A DNA stretch of 32,000 nt from Promethearchaeum syntrophicum (GCF_008000775.2 NZ_CP042905.2:2940001-2972000), one strand, 5' to 3'. Numbered from the stretch's first letter, positions 239-32,000 are shown. Translations and numbers: made by a program. Notes: generated from the sequence alone by a model not told the origin.

Positions 239-261
239 TTTCTTTCAAAAATCTTCTCTTA

Positions 262-741
262 TTACAGATTTCTTTTTACGCTAATAAAAGTTCCATACTC
301 TTTTAAATTTCTAGGTTTAGCCTTACGCTGAGAATATTCTATAGAAACGTAATTTAATAAAAAAACGAGATCAAAAATTGCACTTATAATTAACAATCCC
401 AGAAGTAAACGTTCAAAAATAATTCCTTCTGGGGGAAAATCCATTAAAAATGTAACTAATATTGCACACACCATTCCAAAGATAACAAAAATATAGTTTA
501 AATAATGATACCAAGCCCGTTTATATATAAAAAGAATGATGGTTATAATAAATATCCCAAAAAATGCACTCACGGTTGTAATTTTCCAGATATTGGTTAA
601 AGGATTTAGTACAAGAAAAGCGATTATTATTGCTAAGTTAAATACGTCAACTATTAAAAATAAGATATGTCGTTTTTTCCAATTGGGATTTGAGAAATCA
701 AAATAATGCTCAATATGAGATTGGTAAGGTTTGATTGCCAT
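262..741 (-). CDS. small polytopic membrane protein (about 4 TM helices), function unknown
   Basis: 159-aa ORF. It has a conserved cytoplasmic N-terminal motif YFDFSNPNWKKRH followed by four hydrophobic helices. A paralog lies directly downstream at 1..238. I recognise no catalytic motif. Confidence 0.6.
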   Translation of the reverse strand: MAIKPYQSHIEHYFDFSNPNWKKRHILFLIVDVFNLAIIIAFLVLNPLTNIWKITTVSAFFGIFIITIILFIYKRAWYHYLNYIFVIFGMVCAILVTFLMDFPPEGIIFERLLLGLLIISAIFDLVFLLNYVSIEYSQRKAKPRNLKEYGTFISVKRNL

Positions 742-861
742 TTTCTTTGTGAGTTTAACTTAAATTCCTCAATGTAACAATAAAAAAACAATTATATAAA
801 GATATCTACAATATCTTAAATCGAATTTCAAAAAAACGACTTTTTCATTTCCCAGAATAAC

Positions 862-10420: not shown

Positions 10421-13400
10421 ATGATGAAAATAATAATTATGATACTAAAATTAAATTTTCAACAAATGAATCTACCACTCCAAATTTCTAATCTTAGTCC
10501 GTATGATTACGTGAGCTATGGTATGACCATATTATTTTCTATAATAGGGATGCTGATTTTCATCAGAATGATGAGATATATCAGAGCAGAATTAAAGACC
10601 GCCCCTAAATATACACTTTTCCAAAAAATGAAGAATTTTCTGAGCGCTGTGACTTTTAGTTTAATGGTTTCCCTAGCCATAGTTTTTGTTTTAGCCCTAA
10701 TTTCATCATCTTTGGCCATAAATGCTTCATTAGCGATCAACAGAGGCGTTGGTTCAGATTTAGCATGGTCAGCAGGTATAATTCAAGCATTTAAATTTCC
10801 AACATTTATTCCGATAACTGCTACAATTATTGCAGGATTTTCGCTTTTCTATCCTCTTTACGAATATCTTATTTTGGCGGCTCCTGGCCAGGACGGAAAT
10901 ATGGAAATCCAACAGTTTCTGGAGAAAAAAATAATTGATCGCACATCACCACCTATAAGCTATCTTGTTTCAATTTTATTATATCTTTTCATTGTAGTTC
11001 TTGCGCCAACAGTTACATCATTTATTGCATTGAACTATTGGAACGTACCATCATATCTTGATGCCCCATGGGTAATTGGTCTTATCTTTTTTGTATGGAT
11101 TTTATTAGGACCAATGTTTTATCTATCATATTATTCCAAGATAGGGGCAGCCCATTCATTTTTTAGGGGTCGACGGGTAAACAGAAAGAAAGATAAAAAG
11201 ACGGGGTTCTGGTATTGGATTGCAATCCTTACTATTTTTAACACTGTATGGGCATTTATCCAATTTATTCCAATTTTATGGGGAGATTTTCCTGATCCTA
11301 CATCTCCTTTACAAAATTTCGAAGAGACTCGAGGAGATTTTATGCATACCTTAATTACCTTTTTATACAATAGAGAATTAATTTCAATAGAAACAGTCGA
11401 AAGTCTCTTCACTTTTCTTGCAATAGTTCCAATAGAATTTCTTCTTTTTATAATTACAACTTCCTTCTTTGGTTTGCTTGGATTTTATGCTAAATTTATC
11501 AGTAAAGAACCTTTGAATTCGCCAAAAATGGTATTATTCGCAGCTTATATTATCTGCGGAATAGCTTTCTCAATATTTGTTGATCAGATGGTAAAATATC
11601 CATATACCTTTCCGGATGCATTCTTAAATCAAATTGGATTAAATTTACATTTATCACCAGCACCGGGAGTATCTGAAGCAACTCTAGTTCGTGATCAAGA
11701 AATTTTTGTACGCATTTTTTCAACGGCAATTTTAATCGTAAAAACTTTGGACATAGTATTCTTATTCAATTTTCTTTTCAGAAGGAAAGAAATTAAAAAT
11801 CAGGCTGATGAATGGGTTTTAAACAAAGCAATTTTAGAAAATGATTTTGAAATCATTAAGAAATACTCGAGTCAAAAAAATTCTGAAACCAGATTAATGG
11901 TGGCTCAATCTGTTATTAACTATATACAACTAAAAGACGTACTTTCTAAAGAATCCTCAATAAGCATCGCAGATATCATGGAAGTTCTTATTAATGATGA
12001 AGATCCGGTTATTTCTGGAATAATTTCTAAACATCAAGGTGTGATAATAAGTAAACTACACCAAGATTCCCTTCTCCTTTCTTTGAAAAAGTTGTTAAAA
12101 TCAGAAGAGAAAATAAAAAATAAAAATGCAATCAATGTTCTTGAGAAAATATCAAGGGAAAATATGATCCATACTCGAATTTTACTAAAGGAAATTGTAT
12201 CATCCAACCTTTCTCAAGGAGGAGCCGAGAGTTTATTTGATTTTATTGCCGAAATTGATCAAAGAAATCATGGTTTGGCGTCTAATTTAATTGAACATCT
12301 ACTGATAAATGAAAACGAAAATTTAGTTTATGGTAGTTTAACAGTTATTGGAAAAAACTTATCAAATTTCCAACCTGAATATTCAAAAATACAACCCGAA
12401 TTATCTCAATTACTTCAACATTCAAATGTTGAAATAATTGCTAAAACGATTGATGTCTTTTCTTCATTAGCAAGCAAAAAACAAGAACATATTCCTGATG
12501 TAATGAAAGAATTTAATATAATGACAGCTATTTCACCAGAGATAATAAGGCAAAGAATTGGAGCTTTGGTTAAATTCGCAATTGTTCAACCTGAATGGTT
12601 AAATTCATTATTTGACTATTTAGAAATTTATTTAAATCATCCAAATCCTCGAATTGTAGAAGATGCTGCTGTTTCTTTAGGAAGCATTTCATCAACAATT
12701 GACTTGAAAGTATTTTTCGATCGAATTTTTCCATTTTTTAGAAAATTGGTTCATTCTAATGATCTAAATGTAAAAAAAGCGATTCTCTCATCCATGGTTG
12801 TAATATCAAAAATAAGAGAAGATATTGCAAAAGATGACAGGTTCCAACATCTTTTTAGTATTTTATTGATAGATCCTCATGTAGAAATTCGACATCAAGT
12901 CTTTAGGTTTATTGGTGAAGGAGATCCACAATTTATTTTAGGTGATATAGCAGCATTACTAACAAGTCCACTCAAAATCCAAGTTCGTATTGATTTAATG
13001 AATATATTAGCTTCTATTGCTGAAAAAATAATCCCTTATATTGATGAACTTCAATTGATTGAAATTCTTCAAAAACAAAATTTCGTAAAGGAAAAAGAAC
13101 TAAATTTTCAAGATATGATAGAATTACAAGCAGATCAATCCAAAATTTTTGGTTTTCATGAAGGAGTTAAATCAGTTTCATTAATCGGGGCAACAATTGC
13201 ACTTCTTTATGAGATTCTTTATTTCTCTCCTAAATATTATGATAATATTAATTCATTTATTAATGAAAATTTAGAAAAAGGACAGGAACTTGCTGCGGCA
13301 AAGAAAATCGAATACAAGTGTAAAGTTGTAATGGATGAATTGAAGAGAATTAAAGATCATGGGTCAAGAATAACTTTAGAAGGATTATTAAAAGATTTAG

Positions 13401-14980
13401 AGAGAGATGTGTTTATTGTTGAACCTCTAACTCAGAAAATTATTGCAGAATTTCTTTATGATGTTTATCCTATAAAAAAAGAATTCCACATAGAATTTTT
13501 CGAGATTTATACAGCTTTATGTAAACAAAGAGAATTAGAAGACAGTGATCTAAAGAGTATTTTATTAATGGGAATGGCACAAATTGTAGCGGAAAATCAT
13601 GAAATATACTTCAAACCAATGAGAATGAAAAATCTAATTGAATTTAAAGCCACGAAAACGAACCCATTTGAAACCTGTTTTAAACCGTTTTTACTTTCTA
13701 ATATGAATTCTACAGAAGAAAATATATATCAAGGAGTTTCAAAAGCGTTATACTTAATTATAGAAGTTAGTGAACAAGATAAACTAATAAGAGGGCTGTT
13801 ATTAGAAACGATTTCAAATTCTAAAAACCCCAATATCAAAATTACAGCGATAAAGGCTTTAATATCACTTCCACTTCAAATAGAAGATGAGATTACAATT
13901 AATGTTCTTTTAAAGCAAGTTAAATCAAAACATCCTTTAGTTCAAGCTGAAGCAATTCGATCTTTAGGTAACATTATTCGGATATTTCCAGTTACTTCAA
14001 CGAGATCAAGGAGTAAAGAATTTAAAAAGCTGAAGAACTTAATATATAAGGTTATTTTCGAACCCTACAAACCTGAAGCACCTTTAGAAATTAAAGAAGC
14101 GATCGTTGAACATTTACCCACCATAACTTTATTGCATCCAGATCTAAAAGTGTGCTTAAGTGCAATTAAAGCGATGGGATTGGATCCTGTTCCTTCAATT
14201 ACAACAGCTGCCGTTGAGACATATTTCCAATTAATTGATTATAAAATATCTTGCATATCTAAAGAAAAACCAAAAAACGAATCTCAACGCTTTGAATCAA
14301 TTTATGGAAATAATATCCCCGAATTACGGTTATTCCGACATTTTGCGAATAGTTCATTAACAGAAGTAAATAATATGTTGATTCGGAAAATTATAGCGCT
14401 ATATGAAAAAGAATCTGATAAAATTAACATAGATCCATTACTACCTAGCTTGACAAAATTAGCTACATCAACTTCTAAAGACATAAGAGCTCAAACTATT
14501 GCAATATTCAGTGAAATTTATTTGAAAGACCAAAAAACATTTGAATTTCTACTAGAAATGTTTTTGAAACTTGCAAACAACCGAAATCCTGAAGTAAGAC
14601 GTGATATTTGTGAGAATTTATTTAAAATAATATTCGCAAATCCAATAGGTTTCCAAGAAAATATTTCAATATTCCAAACATTACTAAAACTTTCAATGGA
14701 TTCAGATTTTGAAATTCAATCAATTATTGCAATGAATTTAAAAGAATGTATTGAAAAATGTCCGAAAAGAGCCAATGATTTACTTCAGATCATTTATGTT
14801 TTCTTACGAAGATCGGATGCGCCAATTAAACAGAAAGCAATTATGGCAATTAGGGATATCTGGGTAAAAAATCCAATTTTACAGAAAGATATCTTAAATA
14901 GCGTTCAAAGATATTATAAGAAATCGGGAGATGCGCTACTTCTGACATTAATAGGGAATTTATCTGAAGTAAAAAAATAA
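10421..14980 (+). CDS. giant polytopic-membrane protein with about 1050-aa cytoplasmic HEAT/ARM-repeat solenoid
   Basis: An uninterrupted 4.56-kb ORF in AT-rich DNA. Residues 1 to about 455 contain about 9 hydrophobic helices. The rest is helical repeats with classic HEAT signatures (HPNPRIVEDAAVSLGSI, SNDLNVKKAILSSMVVI, DPHVEIRHQVFRFIGE, NPNIKITAIKALISL, HPLVQAEAIRSLGNI, SKDIRAQTIAIFSEI, NPEVRRDICENLFKI, DAPIKQKAIMAIRDI). The start among four nearby Met codons is uncertain. Confidence 0.75.
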   Translation: MMKIIIMILKLNFQQMNLPLQISNLSPYDYVSYGMTILFSIIGMLIFIRMMRYIRAELKTAPKYTLFQKMKNFLSAVTFSLMVSLAIVFVLALISSSLAINASLAINRGVGSDLAWSAGIIQAFKFPTFIPITATIIAGFSLFYPLYEYLILAAPGQDGNMEIQQFLEKKIIDRTSPPISYLVSILLYLFIVVLAPTVTSFIALNYWNVPSYLDAPWVIGLIFFVWILLGPMFYLSYYSKIGAAHSFFRGRRVNRKKDKKTGFWYWIAILTIFNTVWAFIQFIPILWGDFPDPTSPLQNFEETRGDFMHTLITFLYNRELISIETVESLFTFLAIVPIEFLLFIITTSFFGLLGFYAKFISKEPLNSPKMVLFAAYIICGIAFSIFVDQMVKYPYTFPDAFLNQIGLNLHLSPAPGVSEATLVRDQEIFVRIFSTAILIVKTLDIVFLFNFLFRRKEIKNQADEWVLNKAILENDFEIIKKYSSQKNSETRLMVAQSVINYIQLKDVLSKESSISIADIMEVLINDEDPVISGIISKHQGVIISKLHQDSLLLSLKKLLKSEEKIKNKNAINVLEKISRENMIHTRILLKEIVSSNLSQGGAESLFDFIAEIDQRNHGLASNLIEHLLINENENLVYGSLTVIGKNLSNFQPEYSKIQPELSQLLQHSNVEIIAKTIDVFSSLASKKQEHIPDVMKEFNIMTAISPEIIRQRIGALVKFAIVQPEWLNSLFDYLEIYLNHPNPRIVEDAAVSLGSISSTIDLKVFFDRIFPFFRKLVHSNDLNVKKAILSSMVVISKIREDIAKDDRFQHLFSILLIDPHVEIRHQVFRFIGEGDPQFILGDIAALLTSPLKIQVRIDLMNILASIAEKIIPYIDELQLIEILQKQNFVKEKELNFQDMIELQADQSKIFGFHEGVKSVSLIGATIALLYEILYFSPKYYDNINSFINENLEKGQELAAAKKIEYKCKVVMDELKRIKDHGSRITLEGLLKDLERDVFIVEPLTQKIIAEFLYDVYPIKKEFHIEFFEIYTALCKQRELEDSDLKSILLMGMAQIVAENHEIYFKPMRMKNLIEFKATKTNPFETCFKPFLLSNMNSTEENIYQGVSKALYLIIEVSEQDKLIRGLLLETISNSKNPNIKITAIKALISLPLQIEDEITINVLLKQVKSKHPLVQAEAIRSLGNIIRIFPVTSTRSRSKEFKKLKNLIYKVIFEPYKPEAPLEIKEAIVEHLPTITLLHPDLKVCLSAIKAMGLDPVPSITTAAVETYFQLIDYKISCISKEKPKNESQRFESIYGNNIPELRLFRHFANSSLTEVNNMLIRKIIALYEKESDKINIDPLLPSLTKLATSTSKDIRAQTIAIFSEIYLKDQKTFEFLLEMFLKLANNRNPEVRRDICENLFKIIFANPIGFQENISIFQTLLKLSMDSDFEIQSIIAMNLKECIEKCPKRANDLLQIIYVFLRRSDAPIKQKAIMAIRDIWVKNPILQKDILNSVQRYYKKSGDALLLTLIGNLSEVKK

Positions 14981-20972: not shown

Positions 20973-21896
20973 ATGGCTGTAGAGTTAGAAGATGTCCCGC
21001 CGCAGAAAATCCAAAAATCCGTAGGATTAACCAAAACTCCTAGATATAAAAATTTTGTCGCAATATCAAATAGAAAAATTCCCAACTATTGTTCAAAACA
21101 TGATTTACATATAGATCATATTACAGGTGATACTATATGTACTAAATGTGGTCTTGTTATCGATGAGCATCTAGTTATTTCTCAAAATTATGTAAATTGG
21201 AAATCGAATATAGATACATTTTCTACATATCAACAAAAGGATAGATATTTCTCACAGGATTTGATACGCGCTTTAAGAAGAGGACATAATATTTCATGGA
21301 ACGAGAGAAGAGAAAAAATCGGAATAAATGAGATTAATCGAATTACTGCTTTGCATAATATAGGGAAATCAATAAAAGAAAGGGCAATCAAACTTTTCCA
21401 AAAAATAATCAAGGAGGATGTTTTTCAGAATCACTATATTAAGCTTATCGCAGTAATTAGTTTTTACCAAATTATTAAAGAGGAAAAAAATCCATTAAGT
21501 TTGACCGAAATCATTGAAAATTCCGATTTTTCTAACCGTCTTGCAAATAAATATTATTACACTGTTAGGAAATGTCTAAATATTAAAGCGATATCTATAA
21601 AATCAAATGATCCCAAAATTTACATTCCAAACATATGCTCATCCTTAAGAGTAAATCAAGATATTAATGAATTAGCACGCAAAATAATTGATAATTTCCA
21701 AAAATCTGTGAATTTATCAGGTTTTAAATTAAAAGGTATTGCAGCGGCAGGCGTGTATATTGCTTGTAGATTAAATAGTATCCCAAAATCTCAAAAAGAA
21801 GTTTCTAAAGCCGCAAATATCACCGATTGCACATTACGTTCTCGAGTCAAAGATATGGAAATTTATTTGAGAAGAAATAGAAGTATCTGGGAATAG
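20973..21896 (+). CDS. tfb: transcription initiation factor B (TFIIB-type) paralog, divergent
   Basis: The N-terminal ribbon is CSKH...GDTICTKCGLVIDE (CxxH...CxxC rather than CxxC...CxxC). Two cyclin-fold repeats follow. The second is canonical (GFKLKGIAAAGVYIACRLNSIPKSQKEVSKAANITDCTLRSRVKDM). The first lacks the usual GRS motif. Confidence 0.8.
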   Translation: MAVELEDVPPQKIQKSVGLTKTPRYKNFVAISNRKIPNYCSKHDLHIDHITGDTICTKCGLVIDEHLVISQNYVNWKSNIDTFSTYQQKDRYFSQDLIRALRRGHNISWNERREKIGINEINRITALHNIGKSIKERAIKLFQKIIKEDVFQNHYIKLIAVISFYQIIKEEKNPLSLTEIIENSDFSNRLANKYYYTVRKCLNIKAISIKSNDPKIYIPNICSSLRVNQDINELARKIIDNFQKSVNLSGFKLKGIAAAGVYIACRLNSIPKSQKEVSKAANITDCTLRSRVKDMEIYLRRNRSIWE

Positions 21897-21958: not shown

Positions 21959-24900
21959 ATGGAAAAGAAAGAAAAAAGCGATAAAGCAAATTTCGGTAAA
22001 ATTTTTTTTACTAGATTTATTGATGATAAATGTGATCGCCAATTATTCCTAAAGTTATGTCAAAATAATCCAAATTGGATGGATCCCCTTCGTGATATTG
22101 CTAAATTAAAAAGACCTGTAAGGACAAATGAATATATTTTAAATCTCGGTAAGGCGTATGAACAAAAAGTATATAGTTTTCTAAATAAATCTCTGAATAC
22201 AAAATATATAAAAGATAAATCTACGAAAAAAATTCACCAAACTAAATTAAAATTTCATGACTTAGATGATTGTTACTCTAAAATTCATGAAGGAAAATCT
22301 CCTTATTTGATACTCTTAGAAAATGAATTTCAAACTCCAATCTCATTTAAAAAATCAATTTTTCCTACTAAAAATTCAGAGAATCCAATAGATGTTAAAT
22401 TTTCAGATCAAAGGCCAGATATAATAATTATTAGAAAAAATCTTGATACAATGAATAAAGGTGATATATATGAACTTTTACCCAACGGAGAAAGGCGAAA
22501 ATTACCTAACAATGAAATTAATAATCGTTTATCCATAAATGTAATAGATATTAAAAATACTGCCGAGCAAGATATAGGAAAAAAACATTTTATTGAAATC
22601 ATGCTCTATTTAAGATCTTTTTCTCATTTCATATACGATCATAAATTAGAAAAGAATTTTTTTATTTCGATAAGCAAGAACGGTATATTCCCTAAATATA
22701 CCGAAGACATTTTAAAGAATATAAAAAATTTAGAAAGGTTTGAACAATTTGTTATAGAAATTCCATGGAATGAATCAGATCGGATTTTTACTAGTACTGT
22801 AAATAAATTGCATGATCTTCATGAAATAAGCCCTTGTGCAGTGGAAGATATATCAGTAAACATTCATCCTAATTGCGGTTTTTGTCCCTTTTTAGAAGAT
22901 TGTAAAAAAACTCTGGGGATGAATGATAGGGATAGTCCTAAAAATTGGTCATTACAATTAATACCTTTTAATTCTAGATCAATTTCCCAACAATTGGAAT
23001 CTTATGGTTTTAAAACAATAGGTGATGTAGAAAGAGGGTTAAAAAAAATAAAGGTAGGAAATACTCCAGCTCCATTGTACCCAGAACTTCCACTACTAGA
23101 AATGAAAGTTAAATCATTGATTAATAATGAAATAACTACTCCAATACCTGGAAAAGTACACTCTTACTGCATTCCAAAATTTACCCCTATTTCACTTTCG
23201 TTTGCGATTGAAACAGATCCATCAAGTGATAGGGTATTTGCTGCTGGAATTTATTTAAAGATGATTGTCGCAAAGAAAGCGAAAAATTATCATATCTTTA
23301 AAAAATGGTGGAAAATTTGGAAAAAGGCTTTAGATACTTCAAAATCTCCAGATTTTATTAAAACTCAGTTAGACACCAATTGTTTTTCAATAGACCAACA
23401 AATTCCCTTAGAAATCGTTGATAAATTCTTAAAACTTTTAAAGGATCTAAAAAATTTCAAGATTTTCATCCCTGGTATGCTCGTAAATGGAAAAGAGGTA
23501 ATTCAAACACGGGTCTTGGGTTTTTATGCCATTATCAACGAAAGTTTGGACCCCGATAAAGAAGATGAATTAGCTATAAATTTGGTAAATAATCTCTTCC
23601 CTATGATGGAACTTTGCAATATTGTAGAAAGATATGTTCTCACAAGGGAAATTAAATATTTCAATAAGAAAGACGGTTCAACCAAGGAATATATTTACGA
23701 ATATAAAGCAGATATGGGAATTTTTTATTGGTCAAAAAGTCAAATCGAGCATTTACAAGATATGTTAGAAAGGAATTTAGAAAAAATTATAAGTAGAACA
23801 ACCATCCGGAATAAATTTTCCTCATTAATATCTTGGTTTACACCTTCAGATTCCGAGGTAACACATCCTTATCAACATAAGAAAATTTTTAATTTACGAG
23901 CATTCATAGAAACCGTAATAGGCTTTCCAGGTATTATTAATTATACATGGCACGAAATTGTTAAACATCCTTCAAATGGAGGGCTTAATAGTAATAAACT
24001 GTTTTGGATTGAACATTTCAATTATATGGATCCCACACCATGGTATGATTATCTTGAAGCAAAAGGCGATCATTCTAAACAAAAAAAATTGAAGAATGAA
24101 ATAATCAAACAAGTAATCCATAAAACTCGAGCTTTGAACACACTACGTGAAAATTTTCAATATCGCACACGGCATGCAATTTCAAAACATGCTAGACCTA
24201 TAAAATCAACTGCAATTAAACAAAAAACTTTAGGAGAAAATTATCATAGCCTTGCTCATGTTTGGTATTTATTTTCAGAATTAAATGGAACTATGCAAGA
24301 ATTAGAAGCAAATAATATTCGAACGATATATCCAGAATACAGTATAGGAAAATTGAACGCAGCTAAGATATCTGATTTATATCAAGTTGATAATCCTTTA
24401 GTAAAATATAACATTTTTCAATTTCAAATTATAAATTTATCCAGTAATATGAAAATTAATGAAGGAGATTATGTATTACTAATTCCAGATGAATTAAGAG
24501 ACCTTAGAAAATGGGAACTTGATAGAAAATGGAGAGTAAAAATACATAAAATGATTTGGAATTCAAAAAGTAAAGGTTATTTGATGGAAGTCCATTCTAC
24601 AGAAAATCTTCTAATTTTATATGATAAAACAATTGAAAATAAACCAGAAATTCCTAATTGGTATTTATATCCAACATCAATGGATGCCTGGACCAATAAA
24701 TTATATGGAATACGTGTTGGAGGTCTTCTTGAAAGAAAAAGATTTGGAATAAGTTGGTTAGGTGCAAGATTAGCCTATTTATGGAATATTCGTTCAAAAA
24801 ATAATCTTTTTTGGCCAAAAAATTGGGAATTTTCTTCTAATGAAATATATATGTATTTACCTAAGTTGCTTGAAATAATTAAAGAAATCCCTGGAAAAAA

Positions 24901-26920
24901 ACTATTGACTAATATATGCCCTACTCCAGATGAATCGCAAATAGAAGCAATCAAAAACGCTCTTGATAACGTGATTTATGCAATTATAGGACCTCCAGGA
25001 ACGGGAAAATCACAAACAATTGTGGCTTTAATTGATGAATTTATCTTCCGTTCAGAACAAAATAAAAAACCTATCCGTATATTAGTAACCTCTTTTTCAT
25101 ACACAGCACTTCGAGTTATAATAGATAAAATTAGAAAGAGTAAAAATGTTGAGGGGAATAAATCAAAAGCCGCAGAAATGCAACTTATTTTTCTAAGATC
25201 TGAAAGCCAACTCCCTATTGCTGAAACAGCTGAATGTACATTCGTTAATGATCTTGTTAGATTACCCAATGGAAGCTGGAGATGGAATGGTGAATCAAAA
25301 AAAATTACCAAATCAAAACCTTTGGAAGATCAATTAATGGAGAATTTCGTAATTTTTGGAAATGCCCATCAACTTTTTAGATTGACTGAAAGAACTTCTC
25401 CCGGATTTGTATTTGATTTAATTTTAGTTGATGAAGCAAGTCAATTACCAACAGATTATTTTTTATCAAGCCTACAATATATAAAAAACCAAACTTTCCA
25501 TATTCAACCAAATATTCCGGAGATGGTATCATTAACACCAAATTCCTTAGTAGAATCTAGGGATCATATTGAGAAAATGAATCTATTAAATCCAATAGAT
25601 ATAAGAAATGTTACTAAAGTCGTAATAGTTGGAGATTATAATCAGCTACCTCCCGTCCAACCAATATCACCTCCAAAGAATTTAGAAAAGGTTTTAGATA
25701 GCCTTTTTGCCTATTATGTAAAGTATCATGATATAAATAGATCCCAATTAAAAACAAATTATCGTTCACATCAAGATATCGTTGATTTCACCAAGACCTT
25801 AGGAATCTATGAGGGTTTACACCCAACTTCTTCTTTAGCGAATAAAACTTTGCAAGGAGATGTAAATCGAATCGATCAATCATGGGTCCAAGAAATATTA
25901 GACCCAACCAAAGTGGTTTGTTCATTAATACATAACAAAAGGTTTGAAATTGCGGTTAGTTCCATTGAAGCAGAATTCGCATCAGAAATAGTAATAGGTT
26001 ACTATGAAATGTGTAACATTAAATCGAGTAAGGATGAAAGGGTATTTTGGAAGGAAAAAATTGGTGTTGTCGCCCCTCATAATGCTCAAGGTCGCTTAAT
26101 CATACATGATATCTTCGAAAAAATGACTAAACCATCCAAAAGTCTAACTCAATTAAATAATAGCGAGTTAATGTCACATTTAAAAAGTACTGTGTATTCT
26201 GTTGAGAAATTTCAAGGGTCTGATCGCGAATTAATAATTGCATCAGTAGGATTATCAGATATTGATCAAATTAGTGCAGAAGAAGAGTTTATTTATGATT
26301 TGAATAGATTTAACGTTCTAACATCCCGTGCAAAGAAAAAAATAATCTATATTTGCAGCGATTCCTTTTTAGATTTCATCCCAAATTCTCGTGATGTCAT
26401 GAAACACGCATCACATAGTTATAATTATGCTTATAAATTTTGTAATCGAGAAAAAGTTATTTTTATCAAAAACGAAAAAAATAATTTGGATTATATTTAT
26501 TTTCGATGGAAGGAAAACAGCAAAAAATTGGATAAATCATTAGAAACATTTAAAATTGATTCACAAATCAATGGAGATTATTTCGAAATAAGTTATTCAC
26601 CCAAAATGGAATTTGATTCTTTAATCCAAGACATCCCAAAAGATATTTATAAAAATAAATCAGATAAAAACCTTGATTCTGATCGCGAGATATGGCGATT
26701 TAAATTTACTGATATTCCGAAGATCCGCAAATTTATTGTAATTCCAGACCCAATTTATCAAGAATATGCTAATAAATTTGAAGAACTAATCGATGAATCC
26801 AAAGAAGAAAGTAATCGAATTAATGAACAGGTAAAATTTAAAAAAAAGATTAAGAAAAGTGGTAGAAAAAAAATTAATGTAGATTTTGGTGATAATGATG
26901 AAGATGATTCACTCTTCTAA
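21959..26920 (+). CDS. giant multidomain enzyme: Cas4/Dna2-type Fe-S PD-(D/E)XK nuclease + RNase H-like module + Upf1/Dna2-type SF1B helicase
   Basis: Nuclease: C25 plus C306-x2-C309-x5-C315 (22874..22903), with PD154 (22418) and D197-x-K199 (22547..22555). Middle module: an HhH-like segment, then FAIETDP (E418 at 23210) and FYWSKSQIEHL. Helicase motifs: GPPGTGKS (24989..25012), LVDEASQL (25427..), VGDYNQLPPV, NYRSHQDIVDF, KFQGSDRELIIAS, FNVLTSRAKKKI. Confidence 0.8.
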   Translation: MEKKEKSDKANFGKIFFTRFIDDKCDRQLFLKLCQNNPNWMDPLRDIAKLKRPVRTNEYILNLGKAYEQKVYSFLNKSLNTKYIKDKSTKKIHQTKLKFHDLDDCYSKIHEGKSPYLILLENEFQTPISFKKSIFPTKNSENPIDVKFSDQRPDIIIIRKNLDTMNKGDIYELLPNGERRKLPNNEINNRLSINVIDIKNTAEQDIGKKHFIEIMLYLRSFSHFIYDHKLEKNFFISISKNGIFPKYTEDILKNIKNLERFEQFVIEIPWNESDRIFTSTVNKLHDLHEISPCAVEDISVNIHPNCGFCPFLEDCKKTLGMNDRDSPKNWSLQLIPFNSRSISQQLESYGFKTIGDVERGLKKIKVGNTPAPLYPELPLLEMKVKSLINNEITTPIPGKVHSYCIPKFTPISLSFAIETDPSSDRVFAAGIYLKMIVAKKAKNYHIFKKWWKIWKKALDTSKSPDFIKTQLDTNCFSIDQQIPLEIVDKFLKLLKDLKNFKIFIPGMLVNGKEVIQTRVLGFYAIINESLDPDKEDELAINLVNNLFPMMELCNIVERYVLTREIKYFNKKDGSTKEYIYEYKADMGIFYWSKSQIEHLQDMLERNLEKIISRTTIRNKFSSLISWFTPSDSEVTHPYQHKKIFNLRAFIETVIGFPGIINYTWHEIVKHPSNGGLNSNKLFWIEHFNYMDPTPWYDYLEAKGDHSKQKKLKNEIIKQVIHKTRALNTLRENFQYRTRHAISKHARPIKSTAIKQKTLGENYHSLAHVWYLFSELNGTMQELEANNIRTIYPEYSIGKLNAAKISDLYQVDNPLVKYNIFQFQIINLSSNMKINEGDYVLLIPDELRDLRKWELDRKWRVKIHKMIWNSKSKGYLMEVHSTENLLILYDKTIENKPEIPNWYLYPTSMDAWTNKLYGIRVGGLLERKRFGISWLGARLAYLWNIRSKNNLFWPKNWEFSSNEIYMYLPKLLEIIKEIPGKKLLTNICPTPDESQIEAIKNALDNVIYAIIGPPGTGKSQTIVALIDEFIFRSEQNKKPIRILVTSFSYTALRVIIDKIRKSKNVEGNKSKAAEMQLIFLRSESQLPIAETAECTFVNDLVRLPNGSWRWNGESKKITKSKPLEDQLMENFVIFGNAHQLFRLTERTSPGFVFDLILVDEASQLPTDYFLSSLQYIKNQTFHIQPNIPEMVSLTPNSLVESRDHIEKMNLLNPIDIRNVTKVVIVGDYNQLPPVQPISPPKNLEKVLDSLFAYYVKYHDINRSQLKTNYRSHQDIVDFTKTLGIYEGLHPTSSLANKTLQGDVNRIDQSWVQEILDPTKVVCSLIHNKRFEIAVSSIEAEFASEIVIGYYEMCNIKSSKDERVFWKEKIGVVAPHNAQGRLIIHDIFEKMTKPSKSLTQLNNSELMSHLKSTVYSVEKFQGSDRELIIASVGLSDIDQISAEEEFIYDLNRFNVLTSRAKKKIIYICSDSFLDFIPNSRDVMKHASHSYNYAYKFCNREKVIFIKNEKNNLDYIYFRWKENSKKLDKSLETFKIDSQINGDYFEISYSPKMEFDSLIQDIPKDIYKNKSDKNLDSDREIWRFKFTDIPKIRKFIVIPDPIYQEYANKFEELIDESKEESNRINEQVKFKKKIKKSGRKKINVDFGDNDEDDSLF

Positions 26921-26949: not shown

Positions 26950-28110
26950 TTATAACCTGACAGGTCCTCTTCCACTCCGAGGATCACCATCTTTCGCAAT
27001 AATCATTGGTGCTTTTCCTGCTTTTACAACTTCACGTGCAACTTCTTGATCAATGGTAGCTGGAACTACAATGTTTACAATGCTAACTTCCGGATCCCGT
27101 AAAAACTCTTCTAATGAAGTATATTGTCGAGGTCGATCCGATTCAGGGATTTTCTTTAAATTTACTTTCTTCTCTGCATTTTTCAATGCTTTTGGATCAA
27201 TATCACAAATTGCTACTATATCCATTACTCTTTTTTCCTTAGGTTGCTTATAAGTTCCTCTCTCAATACTTTTTTTTAACATATTGATCCCACGGTCTCC
27301 CATCCCCACAATTCCAATATGTAATTCATTCATTTTCCTTTTTCCAACTGATTCCCACGATCTTCCTTTTCTAAACACAGATCTATCTTGTTGTTGAGGT
27401 ATTTGCATCCCCATCATCCGCATTACTTGAATAGCGTGATCATGAGAGACCCCTAATGGCCATTTATCTACTAACCTATGTAAATTGGCAATAACTTGTC
27501 CAAAATTAGGAGGATTTCGATTTTTTTCTACGCATTCTTTAGTTTCAAACATCAAAGTTTGCATAATAAAAATGAAATCCTTTTCATTTACTATTGGGAA
27601 AAAGACACGCCCTCCAAGTGCTTCAATTATTGAAGGTCTTAATGATTCATCGCGGATGATACAAATCGGAGGGAGTCTATTTTGTGCAACTGTAGTTATA
27701 TCCGCCAATAACGATTTTAGCTTTTCATTATTTTTAGATTCAAGGAGGAAACAACAAATCATTCCTGGTTGTTTCATTAAAATAGTAAAGTGTGGGGCAA
27801 CCAATTTTTTCTCATTATGTAGATTATTATCAGATTCCGTTTCATGAGGAATATATGGTCTGGAGATTGGTATAAACTTGCTTTTTCGCCATTCATCTTC
27901 ACTAATTATGTTTGCAAAGGGAGACTCTGGAGCATTAATATGTATTTTATTCCCATTTAGGTTAATTAAGGCAGGAATTATTTTATCAGCTATTAGATCC
28001 TTAAAATGCTTCTCAATATGTCGAAGTGTAAAAGTAGGTTTCGAATATCTAGATATTGCAGAAGATTCCGGAATTAATATAGATAATGTTATTCTTTTCA
28101 TTATAATCAC
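26950..28110 (-). CDS. hypothetical two-domain protein: unknown alpha/beta N-terminal region + degenerate Gfo/Idh/MocA-like Rossmann domain at the C-terminus
   Basis: The C-terminal roughly 120 aa read LHIGIVGMGDRGINMLKK...MDIVAICDIDPKALKNAEKK...YTSLEEFLRDPEVSIVNIVVPATIDQEVAREVVKAGKAPMII. This follows the Gfo/Idh/MocA NAD-binding pattern but lacks the EKP motif and any C-terminal catalytic domain. I recognise no motif in the N-terminal 260 aa. It is the longest ORF at this locus, and the opposite-strand ORFs are rejected. Confidence 0.4.
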   Translation of the reverse strand: MIIMKRITLSILIPESSAISRYSKPTFTLRHIEKHFKDLIADKIIPALINLNGNKIHINAPESPFANIISEDEWRKSKFIPISRPYIPHETESDNNLHNEKKLVAPHFTILMKQPGMICCFLLESKNNEKLKSLLADITTVAQNRLPPICIIRDESLRPSIIEALGGRVFFPIVNEKDFIFIMQTLMFETKECVEKNRNPPNFGQVIANLHRLVDKWPLGVSHDHAIQVMRMMGMQIPQQQDRSVFRKGRSWESVGKRKMNELHIGIVGMGDRGINMLKKSIERGTYKQPKEKRVMDIVAICDIDPKALKNAEKKVNLKKIPESDRPRQYTSLEEFLRDPEVSIVNIVVPATIDQEVAREVVKAGKAPMIIAKDGDPRSGRGPVRL

Positions 28111-28138: not shown

Positions 28139-29563
28139 TTGTTTAGATTCAAACCTATAAAAAGATATATTATACTTGATTATTTTTTTATAAATTGGGA
28201 GATTCATGAAAAATTGGTTAATTTTACTTTATTAGGAATAACTTTGATTTTATTTGTAGGTATTCTAATTATATTTAGCCGAGAACACATGGACTATGTT
28301 GCCTTTTCATTACTTTTTGCCTTTGTCGCTTGTGTTTTAACCAGTTTTATGATACCAATTGAGCAAGTCGGAGAACATGTACCCTGGGTGGACTCTTCTC
28401 AAATTACTGGGTCAACATGGATGATAATTTTTATTAATATGATTGAGTTTGAGCCATTATTGTTCATAATTGGAATGCAAATTATCTGTACAATTGCTGA
28501 AGAGTATAGATTATTTCAATGGGTCGCAGTAAAATCCCTTCATATCACTAAAGGAAATCATCGAAGATTTTTCTATATGATTTGCACCATTGCTACTTTA
28601 ACAGCTGCGATAATTGCAGATGTAACCGTAGCTGTTATCTTTGTTCCATTAGTAATACGAGCTTGTCGTATTTTGAAAATAAATCCTGCCCCATATCTTT
28701 ATGGAATTACGATTACCATTAATATTGGTTCAATTTTAACTCCATTTTCATCCTCGAAAAATATCTTGATTTCTTCTGAATTTGGCTTAGGGTTTACTTG
28801 GTTTATGCAAAATATGGGTCTTTTTATTATTTTTGCTCTTATTTCCACATTAATTCTATTAGATTTCTTTGTGTTGCGAAAGTATGATCCCCCCGAGGAA
28901 GAACGAAAGCAAATCTTCCTGGATATAATGAATCCAAAATTGCTTATCAGTAATCGTAAACGTTTTATTTTTAATGGGGTTTATGTGGCGCTAATAATTT
29001 TAGGATTTATGATATTCCATGAGCATTCCCCCCTGATTGCCTTTTTTGGTGCGATTATCATGAGTATACTTAATGGAATTCCGGTTACTGACATCCTGAA
29101 AAAGATTGATTTGAAAGTTATTTTCTTCTTTATCGCTCTTTTTCTTCTCATTGGATCTATGGAATTAAACGGCACCTTTAGCCTTATTTCAACTGGACTC
29201 TCTATTTTCAATTTAAGTAATATTTATGTTGTATCTCTTGGAGTTCTTCTAATATCAAGCCTTTTCTCAGGATTTTTAGCCAGTAATCCCACAGCGGTGT
29301 TATTGATAATAATATTAAGAAATATTTATCCAGGAGAGATCCCAAATATTATTTTAATTGCGTTTCTATTTGGTATCAATCTTGGAGGAAACTTACTACC
29401 TCAAGGTGCAACTTGTGATTTAATGACTCTAAATTTGGCCAAGAAAAATAATGTTCAAGGGTTTACCTACAAATCCTTACTAAAAACGGGTGGGGCATTT
29501 GCATTAATACATATTGGTATGTGTATATTGTATCTCACTTTATATAGCTTATTTACTGGTTAA
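28139..29563 (+). CDS. ArsB/NhaD-superfamily (YbiR/CitMHS-like) ion/anion permease
   Basis: About 11-12 TM helices. The segment TAAIIADVTVAVIFVPLVIRACRILKINPAPYLYGITITINIGSILTPFSSSKNILI fits the ArsB/NhaD permease core pattern (sN.a...l..Pi...p.p.l......an.Gg..tp.G...N). The start is uncertain. TTG 28139 leaves only 28 bp to the divergent gene. In-frame alternatives are TTG 28214 and ATG 28289. Confidence 0.6.
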   Translation: MFRFKPIKRYIILDYFFINWEIHEKLVNFTLLGITLILFVGILIIFSREHMDYVAFSLLFAFVACVLTSFMIPIEQVGEHVPWVDSSQITGSTWMIIFINMIEFEPLLFIIGMQIICTIAEEYRLFQWVAVKSLHITKGNHRRFFYMICTIATLTAAIIADVTVAVIFVPLVIRACRILKINPAPYLYGITITINIGSILTPFSSSKNILISSEFGLGFTWFMQNMGLFIIFALISTLILLDFFVLRKYDPPEEERKQIFLDIMNPKLLISNRKRFIFNGVYVALIILGFMIFHEHSPLIAFFGAIIMSILNGIPVTDILKKIDLKVIFFFIALFLLIGSMELNGTFSLISTGLSIFNLSNIYVVSLGVLLISSLFSGFLASNPTAVLLIIILRNIYPGEIPNIILIAFLFGINLGGNLLPQGATCDLMTLNLAKKNNVQGFTYKSLLKTGGAFALIHIGMCILYLTLYSLFTG

Positions 29564-29696: not shown

Positions 29697-31118
29697 ATGA
29701 AATTTGAAATGAAGGTGATAATGATGCAACCCATAAAATTTATCCACATGGCAGATACACATTTAGGAAATCAACAATATAATCTACCAGAACGCAAAAG
29801 AGACTTCAACAAAGCATTTAATTGGGTTTTAAATAAAAGTATTACCGAAGAAGTAGATTTTATCCTTTTAGCAGGTGATGTATTTAACTCAAATAATTCA
29901 GAACCTGAAACTATAGCCGCAATTTATCAAATGATATCCGAATTCAAAAATAATTCCATGCAAAACTTAAAAAGAGAAATACCTATAATCGCAATTGAAG
30001 GAAATCATGATAAAAGCAATATTTCAACTAAAAGGTCATGGTTACAATTTCTTGCGGAATTAGAACTTATCATTCTATTATCTCCTAAAACCAATAATAA
30101 AGAAGAATATACTATTTTTAAATTCGTCCCTTATTCAGAAAACAAGAAAAATCCTGGGATGATTCGTATCAAAGACACTTGCATATACGGGATTCCATCT
30201 TATGGGGCTATGACAAAAACATATTTTCCCGATATTTATAATGCACTCCCAGATAGTTCTGATACATTTAATATCTTGATGATGCATTTTGGGATAAATG
30301 GTCAAGTTATAAACAAATTAGGATTTGAAATGAGTGAAGATTTAAAATTACTGCATAAAAAAGTAAATTATCTTGCGTTAGGTCATTTCCATAAAAAATA
30401 TGCACTTCCCAAGAATAAAGAGTGGGTGTTTAACCCCGGAAGTTTAGAAGTTACTGATGCCAGAGAAATCTGGGAAAATTACCCTCGAGGCATTTTCTTA
30501 GTGGAAGTGCATGATAAAGAAAATCCTAATATTAGGCATATTCCTTGGGTTAAAGGTAAAAGTGAAAGTCCTGATGAAATTCCCAATCGATTCTTTGCAG
30601 ATATTACAATTGATATAGGGAAAAATGATTCAAGTTCATTTAAGGAGGCACTATCATATATATTAGAAAGCTTAAAAATTATTCTGGAAAAAAAAGGAAC
30701 AGCTCATTTAAAAAAAAATGATTTAGAATTACCTATTGTTTTGCTTACCTTAAATGGGACAATTTCCTATTCAAGATTGGAAGTAAACATCAATAAACTG
30801 AAAGAAAGAATTAAAGAAAAATACGATGTTTTGGATGTACGTGTTTTTAGTGGATCTGTGAAGTCAGAAATTGACGGAATCGTGGTAGATATAAGTTCTG
30901 AGAAATCACTTGAAGAAATTGAAAAAGATGTATTTTTACAACTCATTGAACAGCATCCAGATTATGAACCACACAAAAACGATATAATTCAATTAATGTT
31001 AGATTTAAAAAGTTCGATTCTTGATCCAAAAAAAAATTTTGACCAATTAAGAAATCAAATCAAATTATGGTGGAGATCACATATCTCACTCCCACAAGGG
31101 GAATTAAATAAGAATTAG
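29697..31118 (+). CDS. mre11: DNA double-strand-break repair nuclease Mre11
   Basis: The phosphoesterase motifs appear in Mre11 order: IHMADTHLG, LAGDVFN, EGNHD, MMHFG, LGHFHK. The gene lies directly upstream of rad50. The likely true start is ATG 29721 (MMQPIKFIHMADTHLG), preceded by GGTGA at 29713..29717. Confidence 0.9.
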   Translation: MKFEMKVIMMQPIKFIHMADTHLGNQQYNLPERKRDFNKAFNWVLNKSITEEVDFILLAGDVFNSNNSEPETIAAIYQMISEFKNNSMQNLKREIPIIAIEGNHDKSNISTKRSWLQFLAELELIILLSPKTNNKEEYTIFKFVPYSENKKNPGMIRIKDTCIYGIPSYGAMTKTYFPDIYNALPDSSDTFNILMMHFGINGQVINKLGFEMSEDLKLLHKKVNYLALGHFHKKYALPKNKEWVFNPGSLEVTDAREIWENYPRGIFLVEVHDKENPNIRHIPWVKGKSESPDEIPNRFFADITIDIGKNDSSSFKEALSYILESLKIILEKKGTAHLKKNDLELPIVLLTLNGTISYSRLEVNINKLKERIKEKYDVLDVRVFSGSVKSEIDGIVVDISSEKSLEEIEKDVFLQLIEQHPDYEPHKNDIIQLMLDLKSSILDPKKNFDQLRNQIKLWWRSHISLPQGELNKN

Positions 31119-31129
31119 GAGCAAATTTA

Positions 31130-32000
31130 ATGATAATAACTAAAGTGCAATTAATAAACATCACCACCCATAAGAATAATTTCATAAAATTTGAAGAAGG
31201 AACTAATCTTTTAATGGGACCCAATGGCACAGGAAAATCCACCGTTCTTACAATGATTGGGTATGCACTTTTTGATATGAAACTTGGAAATAATCAAAAA
31301 TCATACGTCCGTGTCCCATCATCTAAGAATAATTTTGGTACAGTAAAAATTTGGATAAGTGGCAAAGATAAACAAGAATATTGTATTGAACGCACAATTG
31401 GGAAACCTAACAATAAAATAATTGTATCTCATTCTGATACGGGTGCAATTCTAACTAAAATTTATAATAAAGCTAATTTACGGATTTGGATTCAAGATCA
31501 GATGGGATTAAGTAAAAATTTTTCACTTTCAAGTATATTCGAACACGCCATAGGTGTGAATCAAGGAACGTTTACTGCCCCATTTTTAATGAACCCTAGT
31601 GATAGGTCCAGTATTTTTGCCCCTTTACTAAATGTACATATTTATAAAAACATTTATGATAAATACAGAGAGATTAATAATTCATTCAAAGATGAAATTC
31701 AAAATTTAGAAAAAGAGATTAGCTTTATTGAAGGAGAATTAAAGGGAAAAGATCAAATCACTCAACAACAAATAGATATTAATGAAAAACTTCGAGAATT
31801 AAGGGTTTCATCTATAAGTTCGATTACAAATTTTAACCGAATAAAGAAAAAATACGATGAATTGGTACTAATAAAGGAAAAATTAGAAAAAGTAAGAAAT
31901 GATGTCGAAAGATTGGAGTATAAGAAGAAAAATTTAGAAGATATTCTTGATAAAAATGAAGTTGAAATCAATGAAGCTAAATCAGCAAAAAATATTTGCG
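31130..32000 (+). CDS. rad50: DNA double-strand-break repair ATPase Rad50, N-terminal part (runs off the right edge)
   Basis: Not in the track because it is truncated. ATG 31130 follows AGGAG at 31116..31120. Translation gives MIITKVQLINITTHKNNFIKFEEGTNLLMGPNGTGKSTVL (Walker A at 31217..31240). This is followed by the GVNQGTF Q-loop region and the start of a Lys/Glu-rich coiled coil. Confidence 0.9.
   Translation, partial: MIITKVQLINITTHKNNFIKFEEGTNLLMGPNGTGKSTVLTMIGYALFDMKLGNNQKSYVRVPSSKNNFGTVKIWISGKDKQEYCIERTIGKPNNKIIVSHSDTGAILTKIYNKANLRIWIQDQMGLSKNFSLSSIFEHAIGVNQGTFTAPFLMNPSDRSSIFAPLLNVHIYKNIYDKYREINNSFKDEIQNLEKEISFIEGELKGKDQITQQQIDINEKLRELRVSSISSITNFNRIKKKYDELVLIKEKLEKVRNDVERLEYKKKNLEDILDKNEVEINEAKSAKNIC

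Follow-up and report, generated by a model that had tools for sequence, protein, structure and literature searches.

Dna2 resects breaks downstream of Mre11-Rad50(-Nbs1). The published record links Dna2 to break processing. In mouse DNA2 (PDB 5eax/5eaw/5ean) an iron-sulfur (Fe-S) nuclease of the PD-(D/E)XK class, ~310 residues in length, is N-terminal to a barrel and stalk and to a superfamily 1B (SF1B) motor of domains 1A and 2A, all on one chain. Break resection in archaea outside the thermophiles is poorly known. The only described partner of archaeal Mre11-Rad50 is HerA-NurA, which is known as its resection partner in thermophilic archaea, is encoded in the same operon and is missing from some lineages, for example Haloferax (PMC7776575). 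Here we describe a 1653-amino acid (aa) nuclease-helicase, which we call HN, encoded on a 32,000-nucleotide (nt) stretch of the Promethearchaeum syntrophicum genome (GCF_008000775.2 NZ_CP042905.2:2940001-2972000). The whole of this stretch is referred to as the window. HN probably trims broken DNA ends, because its gene family adjoins the Mre11-Rad50 break-repair genes. On balance, we favor the reading that HN is a single-polypeptide Dna2/AddB-like helicase-nuclease that acts with Mre11-Rad50 in end resection at double-strand breaks.

The order of domains in HN, with a nuclease, a probable β-barrel and then a helicase, agrees with that of Dna2, as a preliminary description of the locus made from the sequence had proposed for the nuclease and the helicase, and the pattern C...CxxCx5C is found in both proteins. 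HN differs from Dna2 in having ~470 additional residues between nuclease and barrel (a helix-hairpin-helix (HhH)-like segment, a probable RNase H-like domain and a helical region) and in having neither the N-terminal oligonucleotide/oligosaccharide-binding (OB) domain nor the Rpa-binding α1 helix. The two nuclease domains cannot be aligned at the sequence level, the Dna2 nuclease model PF08696 is unmatched, and the likeness of the helicases is one of profile-score ranking only. Proteins of the TM0106 family resemble HN in that a Cas4-like Fe-S nuclease is followed by an HhH-like segment and then by an RNase H-like region, which in HN is a probable one; they have been described as stand-alone proteins with no helicase. 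AddAB, AdnAB and RecBCD share with HN the coupling of an SF1 motor to a RecB-family nuclease and presumably the same job, the provision of 3′ tails at breaks, and AddB has the same “iron staple” arrangement of Cys residues. However, these enzymes are heteromeric, have the nuclease C-terminal to the motor and possess mostly SF1A-type cores, whereas HN is a single chain with the nuclease N-terminal to a Upf1-like SF1B core. Archaeal HerA-NurA, a helicase and 5′→3′ nuclease encoded with mre11 and rad50, has the same genomic position as HN, which takes this place in 25 Lokiarchaeial loci, and presumably the same role. In fold, however, the two are not related, HerA being a hexameric FtsK-like ATPase and NurA a nuclease on a protein of its own. 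UvrD-Cas4 fusions (Hudaiberdiev et al. 2017, PMC5704561), which occur in repair and defense contexts, likewise combine an SF1 helicase with an Fe-S nuclease of the Cas4-like kind. They are composed of other domains than HN: their helicase is of the UvrD type (3′-5′, SF1A) and their nuclease is that of PF12705, a model by which the HN nuclease is not recognized.

Literature searches, including searches on Asgard end resection, returned no description of the HN architecture or of its linkage to mre11-rad50. HN is probably an undescribed DNA-end-trimming enzyme in the closest archaeal relatives of eukaryotes. We think it reasonably probable that it works like the known end-resection helicase-nucleases, with the layout of Dna2. 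It is distinct in three traits, namely an N-terminal module that is invisible to profiles, an inserted TM0106-type region and a distinctive operon.

Genomic linkage of HN to mre11 and rad50

We surveyed 59 loci related to that of the window using Mre11, Rad50, ligase, HerA and NurA sequences from the window and its relatives as queries, and 42 of the loci were informative. HN is followed immediately by mre11-rad50 on the same strand in 25 of the 42, including that of Candidatus Lokiarchaeum ossiferum (CP104013.1), with intergenic gaps of -3 to 80 nt (median 15). Most Lokiarchaeial genomes have an HN-mre11-rad50 cluster in which HN is the leading cistron. Five further loci have HN linked to mre11-rad50 at a non-adjacent position: the window (+2.8 kb), its closest relatives L014 (+1.6 kb of inserted genes) and L008 (+6.8 kb of inserted genes), L022, where HN lies divergently upstream, and L059, where it lies within a herA cluster. 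In several loci rad50 is followed by, or located close to, an ATP-dependent DNA ligase module. Linkage to mre11-rad50 is thus seen in 30 of the 42 loci; defense-like islands surround two divergent relatives, P0070 and P0189 (see below). A role in the processing of DNA ends had been put forward in the preliminary description, and is strongly supported by the mre11-rad50 linkage, a line of evidence that the description did not contain.

The Mre11 homologue of the window matches Pfam Metallophos (2.4e-16). Its best NCBIfam matches are the archaeal Mre11 models NF041029 (2.2e-34) and NF041031 (1.4e-27), both under the equivalog cut-offs. The Rad50 fragment at the end of the window is matched best in NCBIfam by archaeal Rad50 models (PRK03918, 3.1e-21), and the linked Mre11 and Rad50 genes are matched along their whole length by archaeal housekeeping models (Rad50 by PRK03918, 1.7e-60).

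In the ±10 kb around the 25 adjacent HN-mre11-rad50 loci, neither HerA nor NurA was detected. In L059 (1459..14109, P0064 lineage), a single-strand cluster reads DUF8166-herA-mre11-rad50-HN-nurA. HN as a general replacement of HerA-NurA was rejected, given that HerA (L008 and L059) and NurA (L059) coexist with it. HN is an addition or an alternative to HerA-NurA and not a strict replacement, and it is found, alone or as an additional gene, where the resection helicase-nuclease is encoded. The HN-mre11-rad50 cluster of Lokiarchaeia is a concrete, testable candidate for the missing resection activity.

The conserved family of which HN is a member occurs mostly in Lokiarchaeia (Promethearchaeota), and some of its proteins are from the Heimdall group. 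Searches with aa 1-985 returned 76 homologue clusters, nearly all ~1490 aa in length and with the same C-terminal helicase. The named homologues are from Promethearchaeota/Lokiarchaeota, plus one labeled Heimdallarchaeota and one labeled “Methanobacteriota”. In data with one genome per species HN is present at 44 loci. The closest of these are from metagenome-assembled genomes (MAGs) of Promethearchaeum sp. with 80-84% identity, and others are from the complete Ca. Lokiarchaeum ossiferum genome, from several Heimdallarchaeota MAGs and from a few MAGs labeled as proteobacteria. The Asgard relation suspected earlier is borne out by the closest loci, at 84% identity, and by a TFIIB gene directly upstream of HN. 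The HN of the window belongs to a small sub-clade with an additional C-terminal tail. Existing annotations of the family read only “AAA domain-containing protein”, “DEAD/DEAH box helicase” or hypothetical.

Conservation was assessed on 33 aligned full-length family members, which are 34-70% identical to the query. When 1.84 billion representatives were searched with a profile, 375 relatives of HN were returned. These include a more distant tier of proteins of 1370-1540 aa, in which the HMMER match covers only the first ~430 positions and the same helicase is present. This tier comprises one confirmed bacterial protein and otherwise unnamed metagenomic sequences. Sixteen of these distant relatives were aligned with family members using MAFFT. 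Homology between the HN family and the distant relatives extends from one end of the proteins to the other (hhalign prob 100, E 7e-133, 1315 columns, query 9-1520/template 1-1463). When the nuclease-domain alignment or the helicase core served as the query, homologue searches gave nothing but fragments of this family, and neither eukaryotic Dna2 nor annotated nucleases were among them.

Domain organization of HN

The single uninterrupted open reading frame (ORF) of 4962 nt that was first described is real. The chance probability of 1653 stop-free codons is ~10^-60 in a window of 30% GC, where the stop-codon frequency is 0.081. Every motif string quoted in the preliminary description was found at its residue numbers in the translation. 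In the nuclease these are C25, RPD154, VID197-I-K199 and C306-x2-C309-x5-C315 (nt 22874..22903), and in the middle of the protein they are the HhH-like segment (334-357), FAIE418-T-D420-P and IFYWS (588-592). The helicase strings are GPPGTGKS (1011-1018), LVDEASQL (1156-1163) and VGDYNQLPPV (1224-1233), followed by NYRSHQDIVDF (1267-1277), KFQGSDRELIIAS (1417-1429) and FNVLTSRAKKKI (1451-1462). These motifs exceed chance because the same residues are conserved across the family and in the distant relatives. The features of HN are listed in Table 1. A 111-aa antisense ORF inside HN (24976..25311, - strand) was rejected as a gene and is almost certainly spurious, because the HN strand is strongly conserved as protein.

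Table 1. Coordinates of HN, its domains and the genes that follow it in the window
Feature	Position (nt)	Residues (aa)	Strand	Basis or remark
HN, whole gene	21959..26920, stop codon included	1653 aa	+	ATG-to-stop ORF
PD-(D/E)XK nuclease domain, RecB/Cas4/AddB/Dna2 type, four Cys (presumed 4Fe-4S)	21986..22948	10-330	+	Conserved motifs, AF2
Helix-hairpin-helix-like segment (LIPFNSRSISQQLESYGFKTIGDV...)	22958..23053	334-365	+	Two predicted helices
Middle domain, probably RNase H-like (TM0106/YprB type)	23171..23848	405-630	+	AF2, motif columns, TIGR03491 via relatives
Helical linker region, conserved	23876..24355	640-799	+	Conservation, AF2
All-β domain, probably “1B” β-barrel	24356..24673	800-905	+	AF2 strands 802-905
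Segment before Walker A	24674..24913	906-985	+	Conservation
SF1B (Upf1-like) helicase core, domains 1A + 2A	24914..26398	986-1480	+	Pfam, motifs, PDB relatives
C-terminal region	26399..26917	1481-1653	+	First ~40 residues common with ~1490-aa members; no profile match
GFO_IDH_MocA-type oxidoreductase, between HN and mre11	26950..28110		-	Pfam
CitMHS transporter, between HN and mre11	28139..29563		+	Pfam
Mre11 homologue, downstream of HN	29697..31118	473 aa	+	Metallophos, NCBIfam
Rad50 homologue, gene leaves window end	31130..32000	N-terminal 290 aa	+	Reading frame in the sequence, NCBIfam

In the nuclease domain, residues E121, D154, D197, K199, E213, Y217, C306, C309 and C315 are invariant in all 33 family members, and C25 is present in 32 of the 33, the sole exception being a gap. 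All 16 of the distant relatives keep D154, D197, K199 and Y217, together with C25 and C306-x2-C309. Position 213 is E in 14 of them, D in one and Q in one, and the fourth Cys is displaced (CxxC-x15-25-HC). D154 was assigned to motif II and D197-x-K199 to motif III, with E213-xxx-Y217 in place of the QxxxY of motif IV. HN has both the four-Cys arrangement C-Xn-C-X2-C-X5-C and the catalytic motifs II, III and IV of Cas4/AddB/Dna2-type nucleases. One Cys before and three after the nuclease core is the arrangement in Cas4, AddB and Dna2 (PMC5704561, PMC4716839). Because the N-terminal site is essentially invariant across the divergence of the family (34-70%) and nearly all of it is kept at ~20% identity, it bears the signature of a working active site. 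The Fe-S PD-(D/E)XK nuclease of the preliminary description therefore stands as far as the motif set is concerned, the four Cys and the D/D/K residues being essentially invariant in the orthologues, but not as far as recognition by a profile or a significant structural match is concerned.

An AlphaFold2 (AF2) model of aa 1-335, built with both groups of sequences in the alignment, has a predicted local distance difference test score (pLDDT) of 90.2, a predicted template modeling score (pTM) of 0.88 and the core order α-β-β-β-α-β. D154 and D197/K199 are located on strands and E213/Y217 on the next helix, an order that fits a PD-(D/E)XK core. PD-(D/E)XK nucleases recur among the top 50 weak Foldseek matches of this model (R2 RLE, McrC, Bse634I, TnsA, Cap4 and Avs3, together with bunyavirus and arenavirus L endonucleases). 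The largest overlap is with AddB (3u4q_B; TMq 0.28 over 285 columns, non-significant at E 1.3), and Cas4 SSO0001 (4ic1_G) is matched at a non-significant E of 1.4.

The C-terminal third of HN matches Pfam AAA_11 (48.7 bits, 1.2e-12, from residue 991) and AAA_12 (75.1 bits, 7.4e-21, residues 1247-1467), as had been expected. Both scores are well above the gathering threshold of 27, and HN is therefore assigned a Upf1-like SF1B helicase. The full SF1B motif set noticed in the preliminary description is upheld. Specifically, motifs I-VI are intact, with motif residues invariant in the family and T1455-K1459 near-invariant, and K1017 (Walker A), DE1158-1159, R1269, Q1419 and R1457 (one gap) are conserved in both the family and the distant relatives. 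The best match of the family profile in the PDB is mouse DNA2 (5.9e-18, 66.8 bits, helicase domains only). IGHMBP2 (8e-16, 59.7 bits) and UPF1 (2e-15, 58.1 bits) come next, and Aquarius and SEN1 are also matched.

The N-terminal 985 aa of HN form a large, unannotated module without Pfam coverage. Neither this module nor the C-terminal tail has a real match in Pfam, NCBIfam, PADLOC or PDB sequences, whether searched as a single sequence, as segments or as family profiles. The two stretches in which nothing had been recognized previously, aa ~700-985 and a tail of ~170 aa, are indeed without a match in the profile libraries.

AF2 places two helices in the HhH-like segment, one at 340-348 and one at 354-363. 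Within the segment P336 is the same throughout the family, and L334, S341, L346 and T353 are nearly so. In the distant relatives the equivalent region is that matched to TIGR03491 positions ~196-278. The middle domain that follows is probably RNase H-like, of the TM0106 type. AF2 models it with a pLDDT of ~90 as β-β-(helical insert)-β-α-β-α, which is compatible with an RNase H-like fold; the helical insert (444-496) is not present in the distant relatives. D420, E535 at the start of a long helix, and W591 are invariant in the family and the distant relatives alike, as is Y662. Position 418 is E in the family, with Asn in one of the 10 members shown, and D, E or N in the distant relatives, and position 605 is an invariant R in the family and R or K, with E in one, in the distant relatives. 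Position 592 is S or G in the family (S592 in the window) as against Asp in 13 of the 16 distant relatives (“Y-x-W-D”). Position 416, equivalent to the first Asp of DxE, is mostly A/G/S in the window family. In RNase H-like enzymes carboxylates sit on β1, α1 and after β4. This full RNase H-like/DEDD carboxylate set is not found in the window clade, where the residues present suggest that the middle domain is probably catalytically incomplete. A second nuclease activity in this domain is possible, although we rather doubt it. The three activities originally ascribed to HN are not all supported. The RNase H-like module has no direct profile match and no significant structure match, and a third catalytic activity is doubtful because one canonical acidic residue is missing in the window clade.

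No Pfam match was found for the middle domain in a direct search. TIGR03491, the NCBIfam model of the TM0106 family RecB-like putative nuclease, is not matched by the window protein or by 16 close relatives. It is, however, matched by four of the six distant relatives scanned, at model positions ~193-370 of 462 (P0189, 9.3e-7; P0172, 5.9e-5; P0196, 1.6e-4; P0183, 0.035), with scores of 13-28 bits that are far under the curated cut-off of 97.45 bits. In P0172, aa 297-517 align to model positions 193-370 and cover the region equivalent to the middle domain. Via the end-to-end homology with the distant relatives the TIGR03491 stretch maps to window aa ~304-608, which take in the Cys cluster and the HhH-like segment and reach through most of the middle domain. 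The TM0106-type layout attributed to HN in the preliminary description is thus supported at the sequence level transitively, and not directly. A literature search for “TM0106” returned no paper about the TM0106 protein family, and to the best of our knowledge no function of TM0106 proteins is known. The N-terminal module of HN ties this uncharacterized nuclease family to a helicase.

A Foldseek search of the PDB with the whole 985-aa model gave a weak match to E. coli Pol II (family B) at E 0.17, and in BFVD the same model matched Megavirus PolB (E 0.027, prob 1.0) and Hokovirus PolB, with prob 0.99-1.0 and E 0.03-0.08; the aligned query residues are not reported for these matches. These weak matches also point to an RNase H-like fold. 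When a PolB-exonuclease-like middle domain was tested for by aligning the family profile to E. coli DNA polymerase II with hhalign, the outcome was negative (prob 0.2).

The linker, mostly helical and, like all of aa 640-985, strongly conserved, has no profile matches. Its invariant residues are K642, G655, P657, Y662, W664, H686, W695, K722, Q734, W769, P792, I796 and K798, and AF2 confidence is good at 690-740 and poor at 741-800. The model is confident for the all-β domain after the linker and indicates that it is probably the “1B” β-barrel found ahead of the motor in Dna2 and in Upf1-like helicases. The best Foldseek PDB matches of the whole model, for which the query residues are not reported, are six-stranded barrels (FNR family) and Sen1 (8ram_O; prob 1.00, 115 columns). 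In Dna2 a β-barrel on a two-helix stalk lies between nuclease and helicase, and an accessory barrel is common to Upf1-like helicases (PMC4716839). The segment immediately before Walker A, in which W911, K914, L915, G930, L934, G935, Y964 and P968 are invariant, is possibly a stalk or helicase-docking segment; its AF2 confidence is low when it is modeled without the helicase. From the AF2 and Foldseek results and the comparison with Dna2, the 280 aa that had gone unrecognized most likely comprise a helical linker specific to the family, together with the motor's barrel and stalk.

Most family members terminate near aa ~1490 with ...FRYK. Beyond the part in common with these proteins the HN tail is clade-specific and Lys/Glu-rich, and it ends in an acidic stretch and SLF-COOH. 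The extreme C terminus (26879..26917, aa 1641-1653) reads DFGDNDEDDSLF. Long-tailed members of several lineages (P0001-P0006, P0022, P0060, P0064, P0065 and P0067) all have acidic residues and then [S/D/A/P]-L-[F/Y]-COOH at their C termini. This acidic tip recalls the partner-binding acidic tips of SSB-type proteins, and by analogy the terminus may be a docking motif.

Candidate roles of HN

A mechanism for HN in end resection can be proposed by analogy with Dna2 and AddB. Mre11-Rad50 would recognize and open the DNA end. The SF1B motor would then load on the 5′-terminated strand and travel 5′→3′, and the 5′-terminated strand would be threaded into the Fe-S-stabilized PD-(D/E)XK site and cut, so that a 3′ tail remains for RadA. 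Binding, holding or guiding DNA would probably be the part of the HhH segment and the middle domain.

Several observations weigh against this reading. The polarity of the HN helicase is assigned by analogy, and nuclease activity and Fe-S binding are predicted from the conserved residues. Neither aa 1-330 nor aa 1-985 gave a Pfam or NCBIfam match at E<=10, with the window protein or with 16 relatives. In particular, the Cas_Cas4 (PF01930), PDDEXK_1 (PF12705) and Dna2 (PF08696) models, which had been expected to match aa 1-330, do not recognize the HN N terminus; PF08696 gave no match at E<=1 with the whole protein or at E<=10 with aa 1-330. Profile searches of the PDB with the N terminus were empty or spurious. 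No HN model has a significant structural match by Foldseek. The best match of the nuclease model in the PDB has an E of 0.1, and the comparison with known structures from which a placement of the N terminus had been anticipated did not place it significantly, the AddB and Cas4 matches included. Within the window, co-transcription of HN with mre11-rad50 is not expected, because two unrelated genes intervene, one of them antisense. HN is unlinked to mre11-rad50 in 12 of the 42 informative loci, which are mostly Heimdall-type, from proteobacteria-labeled MAGs or otherwise divergent. As HerA or NurA coexists with HN in some loci, HN is not simply a replacement of HerA-NurA. Finally, the divergent P0070 lies among methyltransferases and the bacterial P0189 is Tn7 cargo.

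The last two proteins bear on a different explanation, namely that HN is an immunity effector that tracks and degrades viral or plasmid DNA with a logic like that of Mokosh, Hhe, ProA or UvrD-Cas4, the Mre11-Rad50-like proteins being partners in the system. P0189 is a Pseudoalteromonas phenolica protein (WP_404392278.1; L012, CP173161.1, 3793086-3817711) in which all the nuclease motifs and the Asp at 592 are retained, and the β1 motif of the middle domain is an N-x-D variant. Its gene is flanked by those for an N6_N4 DNA methyltransferase and a DinG-like helicase and is cargo of a Tn7-like element, since tnsABCDE lies directly beside it. P0070 (L058), a divergent family member with 35% identity, is encoded in an island with SNF2+SWIM, PIN/VapB, two N6_N4 methyltransferases and a ResIII helicase, a context that looks like defense or restriction-modification and is unlike that of the window clade. 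In bacteria, relatives of HN appear to have been recruited into mobile or defense islands. A TIR-domain gene is found upstream of HN in L005, and Cas4-like nuclease-helicase fusions are often linked to defense (PMC5704561). HN also matches the defense models MkoA (1e-26) and DpdJ (2.8e-17) in PADLOC and ProA, Hhe and PLuB in NCBIfam, but every such match is restricted to the generic SF1B core; that to MkoA is confined to model positions 817-1081 of 1112, within the helicase part. MkoA, Hhe, ProA and PLuB have in common with HN a Upf1-like SF1B core, whereas their other domains and partner genes are not present with HN and the window clade is linked to repair genes. The neighborhood in the window is of a housekeeping kind (TFIIB, peroxiredoxin, transporters and HEAT-repeat proteins), with no defense genes. 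The 44 species-representative loci show conserved synteny and graded divergence, which are typical of vertical inheritance and not of patchy defense genes. Furthermore, the linked genes match housekeeping archaeal Mre11/Rad50 models, and in one lineage HN is embedded with herA and nurA in a canonical repair operon. Immunity, which the preliminary description had raised as its alternative, therefore fits the divergent relatives, because those lie in methyltransferase or Tn7 islands, rather than the window clade, and we consider it quite unlikely to be the role of HN itself.

HN could also be a replication-fork or Okazaki-flap enzyme, a functional and perhaps orthologous counterpart of Dna2, in which the RNase H-like module would serve for RNA-primed flaps or RNA:DNA hybrids and the role with Mre11-Rad50 would be secondary. 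In favor of this are the Dna2-like layout and the helicase core, for which DNA2 is the top match among solved structures, but the margin of DNA2 over IGHMBP2 and UPF1 is just ~7 bits and PF08696 is unmatched. The presence of a putative RNase H-like module is consistent with such a role, although its site lacks one carboxylate in the window clade. Dna2 itself acts in Okazaki processing as well as in break resection. According to a 2025 study (PMC12680538), eukaryotic Dna2 appears related to some Asgard homologues of a family that is not specified. Nevertheless, no replication genes are linked to HN in the surveyed loci, where the conserved partners are Mre11, Rad50, the DNA ligase module and in some cases HerA/NurA, and a replicative role appears unlikely. 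At the other extreme, the N-terminal 985 aa could be a non-catalytic DNA-binding or regulatory scaffold in a protein that is only a translocase and remodels Mre11-Rad50-bound ends. Such a protein might be expected to look as HN does in that neither putative nuclease domain has a profile or significant structural match and that the middle domain is without the Asp at 592 that relatives retain. The near-complete conservation of D154, D197, K199, E213, Y217 and the four Cys, even at ~20% identity, argues against a scaffold, which we regard as very unlikely.

End resection with Mre11-Rad50 is the role that we prefer for HN, and it has an evolutionary corollary. Lokiarchaeia are among the closest known relatives of eukaryotes, and the eukaryotic pairing of Mre11-Rad50 with Dna2 possibly has archaeal roots. 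A tentative and rather doubtful extension is that eukaryotic Dna2 has its Asgard counterpart, possibly an ancestor or a sister, in the HN family, and that this family was already a partner of Mre11-Rad50 in the long-range resection of ends. Were this true, Asgard archaea would have put together the eukaryotic Mre11-Rad50-Nbs1 (MRN)-Dna2 resection axis before eukaryogenesis, starting from a TM0106-type Fe-S nuclease/RNase H-like module that was fused to a Upf1-like motor, and eukaryotes would later have lost the middle module.

Other genes around HN

A conserved trio of genes beside rad50 consists of two small ORFs (~200 and ~230-240 aa) and then an ATP-dependent DNA ligase of ~500-600 aa. It is located at 18930..21774 in L005, 11064..13954 in L021 and 11512..14202 in L023, and is inverted in L001 (6350..8900) and L004 (19132..21985). 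The first small ORF was undetected in L001, and the small ORFs of L005, which were those tested, have no Pfam match. These genes, too, may belong to a break-repair supercluster. Three loci encode another, divergent SMC/Rad50-like ATPase after rad50, namely L026 (17459..19975), L032 (19101..21698) and L044 (19083..21629). That of L026, the only one scanned, has 839 aa and matches AAA_15, AAA_23 and AAA_21. In L002 (13236..18265, P0059 lineage) HN is followed by two large ORFs of 915 and 732 aa and not by mre11-rad50; neither ORF is matched in Pfam or NCBIfam, and neither resembles Mre11 or Rad50.

Upstream of HN in the window, a TFIIB paralogue (20973..21896, + strand) ends 62 nt before the HN start codon on the same strand. 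The TFIIB-HN arrangement is retained in L008 and is absent from most other loci. L008 is the closest syntenic relative of the window, and a DUF8166 and HerA pair like that of L059 also precedes mre11 there. The window also encodes a 1519-aa HEAT/Armadillo-repeat protein with adaptin-N-like matches (10421..14980, + strand), and L006 and L008 have similar genes close to HN. Around HN loci, large eukaryote-like repeat proteins are frequent, leucine-rich repeat (LRR) and WD40 proteins among them.

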